Of a stretch of 64,000 bases of DNA, positions 6,648 to 59,460 are shown in pieces. Positions within the stretch are counted from its first letter, which is position 1, and each line of letters begins with the position of its first letter. The notes beneath the pieces are model-generated. The model did not search any database. It had not been told where the DNA came from and was given only the letters and a program-made list of their open reading frames with translations. Made by a program: the position numbers and the translations under genes. Where the stretch lies: assembly GCA_965231055.1 (NCBI GenBank), contig OZ246411.1:48334-112333 (forward strand). The letters run 5' to 3'. Source of the DNA: an uncultured Candidatus Saccharibacteria bacterium (GTDB taxonomy: Bacteria > Patescibacteriota > CALEFQ01 > G965231055).

Positions 6648-6712
6648 GAGTATTCAGTATTAAGCATTCAGCGTTCAGTTGTGTTTGAATACTGATTACT
6701 GAAAACTGACTA
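6648..6712. repeat. AGTATTCAGT-type palindromic intergenic repeat R1
   Basis: words agtattcagtatt / tgaatactga / tactgaaaactga immediately 5' of dnaG start. Confidence 0.6.
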
Positions 6713-7261
6713 CTTTCTAATAACTACTATTTTTCCGTTCTCAATTTTTATAACTTTTGAGGGTTTTTTGGAAGATACGCGGCCAGAAATATAAAGGCCT
6801 ACTTTATCTCCAAAATACTCTTTTGCCTGCTTGATATTCATAGCTGGAGGCTCGCCAGATGAATTAACACTCGTAGAAACAAGCGGGCCAGTCTTCATTA
6901 GAAGTCTAGTGAGTGTTGGCTTTTTTGGCAAGCGAAATGCAATAGCATCATTACCTCTATGCAAATATTTGAACTTATTATTTTTACACGGCAAAATCAC
7001 ACTTATAGGCCCCGGCCATACTTTTTGAAGTAGTTTATTTTCAAACTCATCGAGCTTGATACCAAACAAATCAAGCTGATCAATGGAGCCAATTAAAACT
7101 ATAAACGGCTTTTTGAAATCCCTAGATTTTAGATTATAAATATCTTGAACTGCTTTTTTGTTCAATGCATCGGCAAAAATACCGTATATAGTATCAGACG
7201 GCATAACCACAAGTTTTCCTGTTTTAAGTTTTTCAATCACTTTAACCATAATCTGACTCAC
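6710..7261 (-). CDS. tsaC: L-threonylcarbamoyladenylate synthase TsaC/YrdC family
   Basis: YrdC/Sua5 fold motifs (PSDTIYG, KxR, LSTSVN..SG). Confidence 0.8.
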   Translation of the reverse strand: MSQIMVKVIEKLKTGKLVVMPSDTIYGIFADALNKKAVQDIYNLKSRDFKKPFIVLIGSIDQLDLFGIKLDEFENKLLQKVWPGPISVILPCKNNKFKYLHRGNDAIAFRLPKKPTLTRLLMKTGPLVSTSVNSSGEPPAMNIKQAKEYFGDKVGLYISGRVSSKKPSKVIKIENGKIVVIRK

Positions 7262-7283: not shown

Positions 7284-7316
7284 AAAAAATGGGATTCGAA
7301 CCTAAGCTCGAATCCC
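7284..7316 (-). terminator. rho-independent terminator built on a tRNA T-arm-like hairpin
   Basis: gggattcgaacctaagctcgaatccc hairpin + T7 on minus strand; contains GGTTCGAATCCCAT. Confidence 0.6.
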
Positions 7317-7339
7317 AACAAAGAACACGCATCGCGATA

Positions 7340-19627: not shown

Positions 19628-19630
19628 ATG

Positions 19631-19692
19631 TGTTATTAGTATTCAATAATCAGTATTCATTATTCATGAAAACTGAACACTGATTACTAACT
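19631..19692. repeat. AGTATTCAGT-type palindromic intergenic repeat R2
   Basis: agtattcaataatcagtattca...gaaaactgaacactgattac 5' of the flavodoxin start. Confidence 0.55.
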
Positions 19693-20374
19693 ATTTAGTA
19701 CTTATCAAGAATCTCCAAAGTTTTTGGTTTTTCACCTCATCCAACCTTAGCACGATATATAGCCAATACAAAATGGGCCCCAATGAAAAATACATTATTT
19801 GCATCCAAGTAGGTGCGTGCATACAGTCACACAAAGGAAGTCCATCATAAGTTGCTGATGTTATATTATGAATATTCAAAGAATGATAACCATAAGTCTC
19901 AAAAAATATAAGTACTACAAAATAAATAAAATAGAAAAAAATGAACTTAGCCCAAAGTTTTTTAATTTTTAGTTTGTGCTTAAGATAAGCATAAAGGGTA
20001 TGAACTCCAAAAAGCCCGAGCGCCCAAGCAAAAGCTGGAAACAGATTTATACCCACTAGTGTTAAAAAGCTGTGGTTGTATCCATACTGATCTCTAGCAA
20101 AAATCATCCACAAAAAAGCGATCAATGACGCTACCAAAAAACGATAAGTTAAAACCTTATTTTTTAAAGCCAGCAAAAAACCCAAAACAAAAAAGTAGAT
20201 TATCACAAGCGAATAAGAAATAGTCAGCACATAATCAGGACTATTGATAAGTCCAAAAACAATCGTGATTAATAGAGCCACGAGACCACAATACAAAATC
20301 ACCTGCTTTTTGTGTTTCAGTAATGTTTGCTCAAGCTCTGCAATACTTTTTTCTACTTTTTTTATATTTATCAT
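19691..20374 (-). CDS. multi-pass membrane protein, hypothetical
   Basis: 6-7 predicted TM helices. Confidence 0.4.
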   Translation of the reverse strand: MINIKKVEKSIAELEQTLLKHKKQVILYCGLVALLITIVFGLINSPDYVLTISYSLVIIYFFVLGFLLALKNKVLTYRFLVASLIAFLWMIFARDQYGYNHSFLTLVGINLFPAFAWALGLFGVHTLYAYLKHKLKIKKLWAKFIFFYFIYFVVLIFFETYGYHSLNIHNITSATYDGLPLCDCMHAPTWMQIMYFSLGPILYWLYIVLRLDEVKNQKLWRFLISTK

Positions 20375-28992: not shown

Positions 28993-29068
28993 TAAGTATT
29001 CAGTTTTCAGTATTAAGTGATCAGTGTTCATGAATATTAATCACTGACAACTGAATACTTAATACTTC
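28993..29068. repeat. AGTATTCAGT-type palindromic intergenic repeat R3 (centre catg)
   Basis: aagtattcagttttcagtattaagtgatcagtgttcatg / mirror image. Confidence 0.6.
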
Positions 29069-48143: not shown

Positions 48144-48689
48144 TTATCGCATCCGCATTTTCAATTCCCATTTCACAAGATTATCCAAAATATATTGCTG
48201 AAATCGTGCATATTTATTTTGATTTCTGATAATGCGATCGTAATATGATTTTTGCCAGGCAAAATCTACGCCATTTAATTGTCGATGAATTTCGCGGGTT
48301 GTGGATGATTTGAATCCGTGAATGATTTTAGGCAAATGCATTTTGGTGCGATATTGATTATATGAATATTGCGATTGTAGGGAATGCAGATCTGCATTCC
48401 CTACAATCATTGCGGATATCATATCCGCATTTTCAATAATCAATATTCCATGAATATGATCGGGCATGATGATAAAATAACCCAAAACCACATTTTTGAA
48501 ATGAAATGGAATTGATCGCCAACATTCATTCGCAATTTTTCCGATTTGGAATAAAATTATTTTGCCATTTTTTATTTTACCCAAAACACGCTTGCGATCT
48601 TTGACACAAATCGTAATAAAATAATAACCTGGACTACTATAATCATATCTTTTTAATCTGATTGATTTACGATTGCGATATTTTTGCAT
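48144..48689 (-). CDS. RAYT/IS200-like HuH tyrosine transposase carrying an in-frame REP-like palindrome
   Basis: GYYFITICVKDR; HuH PDHIHGIL; catalytic WQKSYYDRII; about 25-aa insert encoded by GTAG-flanked palindrome 48373..48440. Confidence 0.7.
   Translation of the reverse strand: MQKYRNRKSIRLKRYDYSSPGYYFITICVKDRKRVLGKIKNGKIILFQIGKIANECWRSIPFHFKNVVLGYFIIMPDHIHGILIIENADMISAMIVGNADLHSLQSQYSYNQYRTKMHLPKIIHGFKSSTTREIHRQLNGVDFAWQKSYYDRIIRNQNKYARFQQYILDNLVKWELKMRMR
48373..48440. repeat. REP-like element: 34-bp perfect palindrome attGTAGggaatgcagatctgcattccCTACaat plus 19-bp palindrome tgcggatatcatatccgca
   Basis: read directly; lies inside the transposase CDS; 15-nt atccgcattttcaat repeated at 48151 and 48423. 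Confidence 0.7.
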
Positions 48690-51844: not shown

Positions 51845-52003
51845 TGATTAGAAGCATTAAAAGGACTAGGGATTAGATATTGGGTGTTAGGTTATGGGTT
51901 TTAGAAGTATTAAAGGATCTAGATGAACTAGAAATTAATCGGTTCTTATAATATCTTTGATGCTTCTAGGTTCACTAAAAACTTTAATCTATAACCTAAC
52001 ACC
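51845..52003. repeat. TTAGAAG/CTAGGG/TTAGAT word-repeat region containing a perfect 13-bp inverted repeat (51883..51895 / 51991..52003)
   Basis: ggtgttaggttat ... ataacctaacacc 95 bp apart; divergent intergenic spacer. Confidence 0.5.
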
Positions 52004-52090
52004 TCGCTCGTAGTGTAACAAGTAATACTACTAATTTTTTTGAACTTTATCAATAAAAATGCTATTATTCCTTATTAATCACAAAAAATT

Positions 52091-52738
52091 ATGTCCATAA
52101 AAAATAGTGAGTCAATGCCGAATAAGCAAGAACAAGAGCCACAAATAGACATCACGCAAAAAACTAAGGAGCTCGAAAAAGCATTAAAATCAAAAAAAAG
52201 CTTCACCCTGATAGAATTAGCATCGATAGCGTCGATACTTCTATGTCTCGGGGGCGTTGTTAAAGAAAGGTTTCCCAAAGTCAGAGGAGAAAACACAAAA
52301 CCAGAAATGTCCACCCCAAGTCAAGAAAAACCTAAACAAAAAATGTGGGAGGAAGATTTTCACACAAACGAACAAAAAAAATCTACTCGTGAAATTAAAT
52401 CAGAGCCGGAACAAAAAAGCGAAGAAGACAAACTTCAAGACGCGATCAAAATGTGCGTAGATGATTTTGAAAAAGGAGCATTCCGCCACAAAACAGAAAG
52501 TCCGGTAAGATGGATGATATTTGATGCAAGACAACCCAAAGAGGGCGAAACTCAAAGCAATTTTGAAATCAATTCGGCAAAAGAACAAATAACTGAAAAA
52601 ATAGACGGAATGATTGATGCAATGCGCACAGAAAAAAATGACGAAGAAGCTGACTACATGGAAGAACTGCGAGACAAGATCTCTGCATGCAATAGCGAGG
52701 AAGAATTAGCAAAACTACAATCCGAGCTTAAACGATAA
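52091..52738 (+). CDS. K/E-rich single-TM protein, hypothetical (possible retron-associated effector)
   Basis: TM FTLIELASIASILLCLGGVV then charged low-complexity tail; ends 70 nt before the retron-like ncRNA. Confidence 0.45.
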   Translation: MSIKNSESMPNKQEQEPQIDITQKTKELEKALKSKKSFTLIELASIASILLCLGGVVKERFPKVRGENTKPEMSTPSQEKPKQKMWEEDFHTNEQKKSTREIKSEPEQKSEEDKLQDAIKMCVDDFEKGAFRHKTESPVRWMIFDARQPKEGETQSNFEINSAKEQITEKIDGMIDAMRTEKNDEEADYMEELRDKISACNSEEELAKLQSELKR

Positions 52739-52807
52739 TCAAACAAATGAAGCAAAGCATTGACAATGCACCAAACAGTGCTATGTTTTTTGTATAAGTC
52801 GGTACAT

Positions 52808-52957
52808 CGGGGACTGGTATTGAAACCGAAAAGGATATCAAAAGATATCTCCGTTTACACAAGTAAGCGGAAGGGAAATCTACAAAGTGGATTTTCCACC
52901 AAAATCAAACTTTTCTATGTCCGACTATGCCAAGTGGGAAAACAAGTCCAGTCCCCG
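52808..52957 (+). ncRNA. retron-like msr/msd non-coding RNA candidate
   Basis: a1 cggggactgg (52808..52817) and a2 ccagtccccg (52948..52957) 10-bp inverted repeat; internal hairpins; 33 nt before the RT start. Confidence 0.45.
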
Positions 52958-52990
52958 CCCCCTTGGTATTAGGACAAAATAGGAGGAATT

Positions 52991-53860
52991 ATGGGTTCTT
53001 TAAAAAATAAATTTGGAAGTGATATCGAAAACCCTATGTTTTATCGCGAGACCATGTTACCCTTTTGCAAAAAGAATCGCACCATCAGTATCCAAAATCA
53101 AGAAATGAGGAAGCTTCAAAAAAGATTTGCAAAATATATTAGGCAAATCAAAAGTTGGAATGAAGAAAAGTCTGTTGTCGTAAATTTGATACTCCATTCA
53201 TATCAAGGAAGATTTTTCTATCTCACAGATATTTGCGATGCCTTTTCATCTGTAAAGCTAGATCGATTTTTGGGAGCTTTTTCAAGGGCGAGCCATAATC
53301 ATTGGAGTGATGCCAAAGAATTTCTGCAAATCTTTTTTTCCGAAAACGGAGAACTAATTACCGGAGGATCAGCATCTCCCGCAATCTTTAGCCTGTACTG
53401 TCACTTATTGCTAGATGTCGAAATCAGAAACGTAATTGAAAATCAACCAATACTGTACACGAGATATGTTGACAACCTAACATTTTCATCACCCAAAAGA
53501 ATTGGAGCTAAGACAAGAAAAGAAATAAGAAGAGCTATGGCAAAAGTTGGGTTTAGACCAAATCATGGTAAATCCAAAGTCCTCGACATAAAAAAGGGAC
53601 CAATAAATATCATGGGACTAAATATGGATGACTCGAGACAGGTATTTTTCCGCAGAGAAATGCTGGCAAAAATTCACGGACTCCTACATTCATACAAGTC
53701 TAGAAAAGATGTCCCAATCGAGGTGTTACTTGGTTATTACGGCATATTCAAAGATCTTTATATAAACCACAGCCACCGCGCAAAAACAACATCACTTTCA
53801 GAAAAAATCAAAGCTCAATTTCAAGAACTATTTTTACAAACACGAGGGGATTATTTTTGA
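52991..53860 (+). CDS. retron-type reverse transcriptase (YXDD box = YVDN)
   Basis: RT motifs KKNRTISIQNQEMRKLQ (1), NLILH (NAxxH), FYLTDICDAF (A), GGSASPAIFSLY (B'), YTRYVDNLTFSS (C), IMGLNM (VTG-like); SD aggagg. Confidence 0.75.
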   Translation: MGSLKNKFGSDIENPMFYRETMLPFCKKNRTISIQNQEMRKLQKRFAKYIRQIKSWNEEKSVVVNLILHSYQGRFFYLTDICDAFSSVKLDRFLGAFSRASHNHWSDAKEFLQIFFSENGELITGGSASPAIFSLYCHLLLDVEIRNVIENQPILYTRYVDNLTFSSPKRIGAKTRKEIRRAMAKVGFRPNHGKSKVLDIKKGPINIMGLNMDDSRQVFFRREMLAKIHGLLHSYKSRKDVPIEVLLGYYGIFKDLYINHSHRAKTTSLSEKIKAQFQELFLQTRGDYF

Positions 53861-57171: not shown

Positions 57172-57174
57172 TGA

Positions 57175-57285
57175 TTAGATGTATTAGTAGAACTAGAAGG
57201 ATTAGGAGAATTAGAACTACGTCATTACTGATACTTCTAATCCTACTAGTACTTCTAGCTCATCTAATAAGCAAGCTAATATTGT
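57175..57285. repeat. about 110-bp imperfect palindrome built from TTAGATG / TAGAACTAGAAGG / ATTAGGAG words
   Basis: left arm and reverse complement of right arm alignable; immediately 5' of uvrA start. Confidence 0.55.
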
Positions 57286-57326
57286 ACACTCGCAAAAGGA
57301 GCATGTCAACGATACGATCAGCAACC

Positions 57327-57466
57327 AGTTTTCAGTATTCAATAGCTCTCGGCAGCTGATTGCTAATTGCCAATAGCCGAATGAAAACTGAGTACTAAAT
57401 ACTGAACACTTAATACAAAAAAGACCCCCTAGATTAGGAGGTCTTGATGAAAACTGAATACTCAAT
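57327..57466. repeat. AGTATTCAGT-type intergenic repeat R4
   Basis: cagttttcagtattcaat ... gaaaactgagtactaaatactgaacacttaatac ... gaaaactgaatactc. Confidence 0.55.
57414..57444 (-). terminator. rho-independent terminator
   Basis: agaccccctagattaggaggtct + T6 on minus. Confidence 0.6.
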
Positions 57467-59460
57467 CTATCTCTTATAATATATCCCGTCATATTTTATA
57501 CCCGAAACATTTCCCATAGCATCTCGATACTGAGCGTAAACATATTTAGTGCCATTATTGGAATTGCCACCGTATGATGTTGAGGTAAGCTGCCACTTGG
57601 GATAGAGAGTTCTGTAAACCTTCCACCCAGTCCAACTCACACCATTGTTTGAAAATCTCATGAGCACTACTCCAGATAGCGAATCAGTTGAAGATGGCAA
57701 TAGATTTACATAGCTTGAATGGTTTGTTTGATCAGCATTCTCTATGGTGAGTGAACCCTTGGGTGGCGCTCTATCATAAATAATACTGTCGTATTTCTTA
57801 TTTGAAATATTACCTGCAGAATCTTTAAGTTGAGCATATACATATTTCTTTCCACTCTTGGCATTGCCACCGTATGCTGAAGTAACTAGATTCCAAGAAG
57901 CTTTTGATTGATAAGGAATCCAGGCTGACCAGTGTTTGCTGTCGCTTGAAAAACGCATGAGATGTGTACCTGAACTATATACACTAACTTTGATCCTCTT
58001 TGTTCCCGTGTACTGATCCCCCTTGTTTATTCTGATGAAGCCAGAGGGAGGTGTGTGATCGTAAATTATAGTATCTGATTTTGAAGAAGTGGTTCCTGCG
58101 ACATCTTTGTATTGCGCATAAACTCTCTTGGTTCCACTGTTGGAATTGCCACCATAACTAGAATTGGCCAAATTCCAATTATATGTAGAAGAATAGACTT
58201 TCCATCCGGTCCAATGAGAACCGTCATTTGAAAAGCGCATACGATATATTCCGCTTCCTGAGTTTCTCAAAGCCACGCTTGTGGAAGTGGTATATGTATT
58301 ACCCCCCTTTATAGTAATACCTGTACCTGAGAGAGCTGTATATCCAAAAGCATATTTTAGATCGCCATCGCCTTCATCATAATAGGAAATATGTGCGTTA
58401 CCATTTTCATCTATTGCGAGAGAGTTTGCACTTCCTACTTCAGTATTGCCATCAGCTACTTCATGGTACCAAGTTGAGCCTGATTTATACGAATAAAGAA
58501 GCAAACCACTATTAAATTCATAATAGGCTATTCTAGGATTACCATTTCCATCTAGGGCAATAGAATTATTCATACCATAACTTCCAGTATCATCACGCAC
58601 TGTCTCGAGAGACCAGTTCGTACCTGTCTTTTTAGCATATTTCAATTTTTCACTATCGTTATCGTGATATGAAACATGTACATTGCTATCGCAATCAATT
58701 GCAATTGAAGTTCCGAGCTGTATTGTTCCTGAATCGTCTATGGCTTCAAGAGTCCAAACTCCCCCAGTTAAATCTCCTGAGTGGGAAGCCAGTTTTACAT
58801 AGCCACTACTTACATCTATATAACTCATACGTGGCTGATTTGTATTATCATCTACTGCGATATCAATATAGTATCCGGTAGTAAAAATTGCATCTTCCAC
58901 AACCACTTTCAACCAACCACCCCCATATGGTCGATACATATATTTGAGACTATCATCGGTAGCGTCAAAGTAGCCAATATGCACTCCCCTATTTTCATCT
59001 ATCGCAATGGATGAAAAGCCTCCCACTTCAGCGTCATTGTCTATAGTTGTCACCTGCCAGTCTCCATCTTCATTGGAAGCGTATTTCAGGGAGCTATTGG
59101 TAGCATCAAAATAACTAATGGCGTAAATATCATTGTCTTCATCGTAAGCAATTCCAATATCCGTACCCACATCTCCTCCACTGTCCAAAATCTGAGTACT
59201 CCAAGTATCATCACCATTCTGGTAAGCATATTTCAAATCGCCACTAGTTTCATCTCTATATGCAATATGAGCAAGTCCGTTATTATCTAGCACGATAGAA
59301 GTATATCCCCCCTTGTCCCCAGCTGATTCTATGATTTCTCTTGACCAAGTTTTGGCCCACGTAGTTGCTCCAAAAGTCAATAAACCAAAGACAATTACTA
59401 TTACAAAAACTACGCCTTTTACAACGGGCGTTGGCTCTGCGAATAATGAATGGTTTTTCA
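57467..59460 (-). CDS. cell-surface repeat protein (beta-propeller-like LKYA repeats + three about 70-aa MRFSxxGxxWTGWKVY repeats)
   Basis: signal/TM; internal tandem repeats; start set to MKNHSLF. Confidence 0.55.

Follow-up and report, generated by a model that had tools for sequence, protein, structure and literature searches.

Genomic context of the repeat arrays

The window, i.e., the whole 64,000-nt stretch of DNA analyzed in this work, belongs to the genome of a candidate-phyla-radiation bacterium (Patescibacteria) in which most genes are devoid of a Shine-Dalgarno (SD) site: an SD-like motif was detected at only 11 of the 72 ORF starts in the window, the other 61 having none. UvrA encoded in the window is at most 68% identical to that of any species representative, its best matches being found in MAGs of Patescibacteria (Komeilibacteria, Kerfeldbacteria and similar). 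Logan contigs from the runs SRR10912415 to SRR10912418, comprising four assemblies of the population, were 100% identical to the window, repeats included.

All four arrays of short words described in the initial annotation were recovered at the positions reported there. Each of these sites (R1-R4) consists of tandem repeats of a degenerate 7-nt unit in opposed arrays, (AGTATTC)n followed by (GAATACT)n, with 3-5 units per arm in R1-R3 and 2-5 in R4. The sites are 62 to about 140 nt long, and the number and order of units vary between the copies. All arrays in the window are intergenic, being confined to four gaps, and the genes neighbouring R1-R4 all reside on the - strand. The arrays and the signals adjacent to them are listed below.

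6648..6714, - strand: R1, four AGTnnTC units, an 8-nt loop and 4-5 GAnnACT units
19628..19693, - strand: R2, opposed heptad arrays centred on TTCATGAA
28991..29070, - strand: R3, the longest of the R1-R3 copies, 5 + 5 units around TTCATGAA; the aminotransferase ATG is at 28990-28988
29079-29071, - strand: extended -10 promoter box TGGTATAAT, predicted from sequence, directly 5' of R3
57325-57466, - strand: R4 as a whole, after the gene of a 678-aa surface protein and around its intrinsic terminator
57325..57412, - strand: R4a, 4-5 AGTnnTC units (57412-57383), a 40-nt core and two GAnnACT units (57343-57327)
57446..57466, - strand: R4b, two AGTnnTC units (GAGTATTCAGTTTTCAT) between the stop codon of the 678-aa ORF (57469-57467) and its terminator
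57445-57421, - strand: intrinsic terminator of the 678-aa gene, AAGACCTCCTAATCTAGGGGGTCTT followed by a T-run; not itself a repeat, with heptad units on both sides
57309-57281, - strand: uvrA promoter TTGACA-17-TACAAT, 11 of 12 consensus matches, 17 nt downstream of R4a

R1 occupies the entire 62-nt gap between the TAG stop codon of a Sua5/YrdC-like gene (6712-6710; Pfam assignment) and the ATG of dnaG (6647-6645), the stop codon being located within the first R1 unit. Similarly, R2 makes up the entire 63-nt gap between the TAG stop codon of a 227-aa ORF (19693-19691) and the ATG of the FMN_red/flavodoxin-like gene (19627-19625). R3, whose symmetry around TTCATGAA had been pointed out earlier and is confirmed here, is preceded by an intrinsic-terminator-like hairpin and by the extended -10 box, downstream of which it begins after 4-5 nt. 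Since the first paired bases of R3 coincide with the predicted transcript start, the array probably represents the complete 5'UTR of the aminotransferase gene transcribed from this putative promoter. The distance from the last unit to the ATG is 1 nt for dnaG, 10 nt for the FMN-reductase/flavodoxin-like gene and 4 nt for the aminotransferase gene.

R4 is organized differently. Its larger part, R4a, is placed between the terminator of the 678-aa gene and the uvrA -35 box, and the 40-nt core of R4a is built of a different 7-nt unit (ATTGGCA, ATTAGCA, ATCAGCT). As the uvrA promoter is located downstream of R4, the array lies outside the uvrA transcript and is not at the uvrA 5' end. Consequently, of the four genes whose 5' ends had been suggested to carry the arrays, only those at R1-R3 have an array abutting the start codon. 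The further suggestion that the arrays replace the SD and promoter elements is not supported by our data: most genes of this genome lack an SD, so that its absence at R1-R3 is not a replacement, R3 is situated downstream of TGGTATAAT, and R4 upstream of the uvrA promoter.

Several other features were registered in the same region. A 91-aa ORF (57217-57492, - strand), which crosses R4 and the terminator and was called as a gene on Logan contig L208, is probably spurious. The uvrA 5'UTR (57174-57268) contains an imperfect palindrome of its own with 41-nt arms (78% complementary, -33.3 kcal/mol, z = -4.8), which ends 13 nt before the ATG, is not 7-periodic and stands outside the GAATACT family. 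Its word GATTAGAAG, considered as a second dispersed family around the uvrA leader, was rejected, having 18 matches in the window vs 24 expected. The terminator upstream of the Sua5-like gene (7290-7317, - strand) holds GGTTCGAATCCCA, which resembles the T-arm and acceptor end of a tRNA and may be a tRNA remnant. A perfect palindrome with 20-nt arms (GATTGTAGGGAATGCAGATC / GATCTGCATTCCCTACAATC) was found at 48373-48408 within the ORF 48144-48689. Finally, a possible retron is located at 51870-53860 (+ strand), where a 289-aa RVT_1 protein (52991-53860), having retron-type reverse transcriptases as its best PADLOC matches, is preceded by a 215-aa ORF without family match; the region 51870-52020, further upstream, has a very stable predicted fold (-47.7 kcal/mol, z = -5.5) and contains GGTGTTAGGTTAT / ATAACCTAACACC, an inverted repeat of 13 nt whose arms are separated by about 95 nt, both features resembling msr/msd RNA.

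Composition and enrichment of the 7-nt unit

The consensus of 36 units read in one orientation was GAATACT (G 78%, A 100%, A 72%, T 61%, A 94%, C 89%, T 97%), with A2, A5, C6 and T7 being near-invariant and positions 3 and 4 free. Read in shifted register, the unit corresponds to [A/T][A/T]ACTGA, so that A5, C6, T7, G1 and A2 constitute an ACTGA core. GAATACT, GAAAACT, GATTACT and other variants occur in the window, appearing in the ACTGA register as ATACTGA, AAACTGA, TTACTGA and similar; exact TAACTGA is absent from R1-R4 on either strand. Tandem Repeats Finder detected the period of 7 at 6649-6679, 6686-6714, 19640-19667 and 28995-29030.

The enrichment of the unit in the window was far above chance. 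With one mismatch allowed, AGTATTCAGT had 20 matches vs 4.3 expected, 19 of them inside R1-R4; none of 100 shuffles reached this number, the largest value being 12. The three-unit pattern ACTnnnnACTnnnnACT had 10 matches vs 0.38 expected, all inside R1-R4, and ACTGAnnACTGA had 5 vs 0.09 expected. The arrays are, therefore, a genuine dispersed repeat family, as proposed in the initial annotation, rather than frequent AT-rich k-mers, the shuffles having rejected chance and the copies being only intergenic and mostly just before starts. The description of the family as palindromic words proved correct in that the copies are imperfect palindromes with predicted hairpin folds, and incomplete in that the period of 7 was missed: the words are overlapping reads of the 7-nt tandem unit.

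In R1-R3 the units are arranged head-to-tail in three or more copies; they occur above chance and are intergenic, as is characteristic of the prokaryotic tandem heptamer repeats (LSSR/STRR). In R1, R2 and R3 the ACTGA-type array faces a start codon within a few nucleotides and with no SD between, which is not the case in R4. We are thus highly confident that the arrays are degenerate tandem heptamer repeats of the ACTGA-core type, organized as two opposed hairpin-capable arrays. Both the heptamer-repeat class and the ACTGA core are already known.

Hairpin folding and pairing of the arms

The opposed arrangement creates a potential hairpin of 25-30 bp with one mismatch per approximately 7 nt. 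The predicted folds of the sense strand amounted to -21.5 kcal/mol for R1 (z = -4.9), -23.7 for R2 (z = -5.9), -24.9 for R3 (z = -4.9) and -29.9 for R4a (z = -3.6). Permutation of the unit order in the 3' arm, performed for 36 hairpins, did not weaken the folds (mean difference +0.09 kcal/mol, Wilcoxon p = 0.63). Pairing strength is therefore not visibly optimised, and covariation between the arms is rejected by the same permutation, positions 3 and 4 not covarying; the complementarity of the two arms results solely from the core that they share. What is conserved is the core of the unit, the opposed arrangement and the polarity, and not maximal pairing. Neither fold energies nor G-U pair counts differed consistently between the sense and antisense strands, and these values do not separate the RNA level from the DNA level.

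The Rfam search of the window at the gathering threshold revealed only four tRNAs and no family at the arrays, while relaxed searches gave sub-threshold matches only, mostly to long-hairpin (microRNA-precursor) models. We also considered the array as a module of stop codons in three frames. In the AT-rich window this property is not distinctive, as the 5' arms carry stops as well, and the idea was rejected; in GC-richer contigs with ACTGA arrays, stops in all three frames were present in 34 of 36 3' arms, and 30 of 36 5' arms contained none in any frame.

Conservation of the arrays in a related species

Three orthologous sites were compared with a congener from the sample ERR4067841, with amino acid identities of 87% for DnaG, 88% for the aminotransferase and 82% for FMN_red.

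R1 ortholog, L202 1206-1267: kept at equal length, 53 of 62 positions identical; fold -21.5 kcal/mol in the window, -21.9 in the congener
R2 ortholog, L210: kept, 4 substitutions in 63 nt; fold -23.7 kcal/mol in the window, -22.5 in the congener
R3 orthologous site, L209: R3 absent

In R1 and R2 pooled, 112 of 125 positions (90%) are identical; in the flanking genes the value at 4-fold degenerate sites is 439 of 642 (68%), and the binomial test of the difference gave p = 2e-8. The number of units is the same in the congener, and the substitutions affect mostly unit positions 1, 3 and 4. Among random substitution sets, the fold energy of the congener was matched by 6.5% for R1 and by 10% for R2. 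Judging from this sequence comparison, R1 and R2 are under purifying selection between the two species.

At the R3 site of the congener (L209) there is a terminator, TGATATAAT in the position of the -10 box of the window, and a plain leader of 38 nt followed by a GTG start; the leader is unrelated to R3, and no clean empty site is present. As R1 and R2 are kept and R3 is absent, some copies appear to be old and constrained, and others to have been gained or lost. The congener additionally possesses a G+C-rich insert of 193 nt (L209 1820-2012) in the aminotransferase-methyltransferase gap, which is 21 nt in the window. A phase-variable slippage locus was considered and rejected: in the 36-unit survey neighbouring units of an array nearly always differed, the four runs are identical, and the congener keeps the unit number.

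Related elements in metagenomes and phages

Relatives fetched via UvrA carry other heptamer hairpins before start codons, e.g., (AAGTCAA)n...(TTGACTT)n followed by ATG in L002. The metagenome scan for GAAAACTGAATACT recovered many contigs, of 32-66% GC, with (NNTCAGT)n-loop-(ACTGANN)n elements. In the grpE-dnaK-dnaJ operon of one of the loci (L101), each of the two gaps holds a hairpin whose 5' arm directly adjoins the stop codon and whose 3' arm stops 8 nt short of the ATG.

The IMG/VR scan for ACTGAAWACTGAAWACTGA yielded 84 loci. Two of these are assigned to tailed phages on the basis of PHROGs, namely, L223 with a tape-measure protein and L260 with a major head protein, a head protease and a major tail protein. 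In the structural operon of L260 the hairpin fills 9 of 12 gaps from stop to start, mostly without an SD. Some phage contigs, such as L223, have a normal SD downstream of the array, which therefore is not simply an SD substitute. Among the cultured-isolate phages no match was found either to L223 or to the model hairpin, though for the latter the low-complexity filter may hide matches. The phage contigs also contain other heptamer pairs before starts (L260 7046-7149; L223 2230-2330 and 6520-6620), namely, (GGGATTA)n...(GAATCCC)n, (AGCGAAT)n...(CCCTACT)n and (CGGCTGT)n...(CCCTACT)n. As complementarity is lacking in the latter two pairs, a hairpin is not a necessary outcome of opposed or adjacent arrays.

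The polarity of the paired arrays appeared to be absolute. In viral contigs the AGT-type arm is 5' and the ACT-type arm 3' in 32 cases and the reverse in none (32 distinct elements, 14 loci); the same polarity was observed in metagenome contigs (at least 6 to 0) and in the window (4 of 4), i.e., in at least 40 to 0 overall. Both arrangements are strand-symmetric, and their detection is consequently unbiased with respect to polarity. Unpaired ACTGA arrays are oriented as well: 58 face the start of a long ORF within 60 nt, vs 11 in the opposite orientation, and mostly lie 0-20 nt away.

Possible function of the arrays

Considering the orientation bias with respect to genes, the stop-to-start placement in operons, including late operons of phages, and the conservation, we tentatively propose that the arrays act as a transcribed cis-acting mRNA element which, from a position immediately before the start codon, influences the start of translation or the processing of the transcript (estimated probability about 0.4). 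The 58-to-11 orientation bias points to the transcript rather than to duplex DNA. Favorable to this proposal is also the extent of the arrays in the window. R1 and R2 cover the gene gap beginning at the stop codon and leave no more than 10 nt free in front of the ATG, R3 covers the leader beginning at the predicted transcript start and leaves 4 nt, and in all three no SD is located between array and ATG. Assuming that R1-R3 are transcribed within the mRNA, the ACUGA-type arm beside the AUG would be the functional part, as in single TAACTGA-type arrays, and, in a genome poor in SD sites, could serve as a leader that loads ribosomes or marks the start independently of an SD. It would pair with the UCAGU-type arm upstream, and the intercistronic or 5'-terminal stem-loop formed in this way might set the accessibility of the start. 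Opening of the stem-loop could be brought about by an RNA chaperone or by the ribosome terminating at the stop codon next to the 5' arm. The same structure could also be a point of stability or processing in polycistronic RNA.

Several observations count against the mRNA element. R4 is outside the uvrA transcript, R3 is dispensable in the congener, arm positions do not covary, no consistent asymmetry between sense and antisense folds was detected, and an SD follows the array in L223. Moreover, a stem of -21 to -25 kcal/mol touching the AUG should inhibit initiation and not help it.

The neutral or selfish origin of the repeats is the alternative that survives best, and we regard it as rather unlikely. 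In this case the arrays would arise by slippage, template switching or a mobilising enzyme (as REP or MITE) and be kept where the gaps tolerate them, the hairpin and the proximity to starts being by-products of short gaps. This explanation agrees with the presence of R3 in one species and not in its congener, with the position of R4 in the no-man's-land between terminator and promoter, where it is interrupted by other 7-mers, with the unrelated functions of the downstream genes (dnaG, FMN reductase-like, aminotransferase), with complementarity of the arms no better than the shared core predicts, and with heptamer repeats being the commonest intergenic tandem repeat of prokaryotes with no known role (PMC6344855). 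It is opposed by the conservation of R1 and R2 (90% vs 68% at synonymous sites, no unit gained or lost) and by the near-complete absence of identical neighbouring units together with the identity of the four population assemblies, the former indicating that no recent slippage has taken place. The polarity and the orientation bias described above are both unexpected under neutrality. As to mobility, the identification of the arrays as MITEs, suggested initially, is not supported, since the copies share only the 7-nt unit, differ in unit number, order and length, and show neither target-site duplications in the flanks nor a clean empty site.

A different explanation, which we consider improbable, is that the arrays are operators acting at the DNA level, bound by a small sequence-specific protein with one 7-bp unit per subunit and regulating adjacent promoters, as in the global regulator of the initial annotation. 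The invariance of A2, A5, C6 and T7 with positions 3 and 4 free and no covariation would fit a sequence-specific binder, the interspecies substitutions fall mainly at positions 1, 3 and 4, R3 (4-5 nt after the -10 box) and R4a (ending 17 nt before the -35 box) are both placed in an operator-like manner, and the omega heptads provide a precedent. Yet R1 and R2 are located inside operons where no convincing promoter was found, and the orientation bias of single arrays and the stop-to-start filling in phage late operons fit RNA better. Furthermore, the occurrence of the ACTGA-core unit in genomes of 32-67% GC from very different lineages would require one conserved binder, and no candidate protein was identified.

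About equally improbable are hairpins dedicated to RNA processing or stability, i.e., sites of RNase III or another endonuclease, or protective stem-loops which split the polycistronic RNA by half-life, translation not being the target. The imperfect stems of 25-30 bp in exactly intercistronic positions, R3 as a would-be 5'-terminal stem-loop, one hairpin per gene gap in the phage structural operon and the fold energy kept in the congener are compatible with such a role. It leaves unexplained, however, the single unpaired start-facing arrays, the fixed polarity, and the conservation of the unit sequence rather than of pairing. Intrinsic terminators or attenuators between genes, suggested by stable hairpins in intergenic gaps, are, along with chance, effectively excluded: R1-R3 are not followed by a U-tract, their 3' arm is A-rich, their stems are A/U-rich and followed by ATG, and the terminator scan gave no matches at R1-R3 and a classical terminator beside R4.

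Returning to the mRNA element, a broader version of it can be formulated, to which we assign a low probability. ACUGA-type heptad arrays might be a widespread SD-free mark of translation start, recognized by a conserved factor that binds single strands and covers about 7 nt, with ribosomal protein S1 and cold-shock-domain proteins as candidates, and the opposed-array hairpin might be the built-in switch of this mark. Such a signal would be common to Patescibacteria, cyanobacteria, Bacteroidetes, Beggiatoaceae and other lineages up to 67% GC, as well as to their phages, and the UCAGU arm would mask the ACUGA arm until the upstream ribosome or a chaperone opened the hairpin. If true, this start mark would account for the absolute polarity as well as for the period of 7.

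Significance and comparison with known repeat systems

In the full-text literature search we found no description of the opposed-array hairpin form with fixed polarity, nor of its occurrence in Patescibacteria and tailed-phage operons or of evidence for purifying selection. Our results extend the heptamer class to a reduced Patescibacteria genome and to late operons of tailed phages, and add to it four testable regularities: strict paired polarity, stop-to-start filling, purifying selection and non-optimised pairing at variable positions. Should the arrays prove to control translation start or mRNA processing, SD-poor bacteria would have in them a general expression signal. The arrays would also matter for gene calling, given the spurious ORFs which run through the TCAGT-oriented arm.

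REP/BIME elements of enterobacteria are short dispersed imperfect palindromes, often within operons, which are transcribed and stabilise mRNA; REPs are palindromes of 20-40 nt headed by a conserved GTAG, are associated with RAYT (Y1) transposases and are not built of 7-nt units. The REP-like nature suggested for the arrays in the initial annotation holds as an analogy in the dispersed imperfect palindromes and in their placement between the genes of operons, while R1-R4 are built of 7-nt units and lack a shared GTAG head. The omega repressor of pSM19035 is a ribbon-helix-helix protein which binds WATCACW heptads, direct and inverted, with one dimer per unit and at promoters only. Contiguous 7-bp units in direct and inverted orientation are common to these operators and the window arrays; however, the unit is not WATCACW, and R1 and R2 are not at promoters.

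Polycistronic RNA of phage T7 is cut at intercistronic RNase III sites. In mycobacteriophages, start-associated sequences (SAS/ESAS) are repeats, some of them inverted, upstream of many starts, the SAS including the SD (PMC3203893). The hairpins of L223 and L260 resemble both in being repeated elements just before many starts in phage operons, and differ from them in sequence and in the heptad periodicity, which is absent from those elements.

The STRR heptamers of cyanobacteria include CCCCAGT, CAACAGT and TTGGTCA. In Nostoc, heptamer repeats are located near the starts of recF and recO, and their deletion is reported to affect the expression of both genes (bioRxiv 10.1101/2022.06.06.494920). 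The window arrays have in common with them the period-7 intergenic arrangement, the AGT/ACT trinucleotide in several units, the position near promoters or starts and a suspected binding partner. The unit sequences are different, and the cyanobacterial arrays are usually long, homogeneous and direct, in contrast to the short degenerate opposed pairs of the window. For prokaryotes in general, Mori et al. (2018, PMC6344855) described tandem heptamers as more abundant than any other intergenic tandem repeat and saw "no clear clue" to what they do.

The closest parallel is provided by the TAACTGA direct repeats described in marine Beggiatoaceae, 15 cyanobacteria and 5 Bacteroidetes (MacGregor, 2015, PMC4679880), for which translational control was proposed: 147 of 170 sets face a start codon, the commonest end being 1 nt upstream of it, and SD sites are rare. 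The Beggiatoaceae genome contains 169 direct sets and one inverted set (PMC4679880). Unlike the TAACTGA repeats, the window units are degenerate, are almost never identical to their neighbours, form opposed hairpin-capable pairs and belong to a Patescibacteria host. Common to both systems are the 7-nt unit with the ACTGA core, its intergenic location and forward orientation, the end of the array a few nucleotides before a start codon with no SD, the unrelated nature of the downstream genes and the SD-poor genomes of the hosts.
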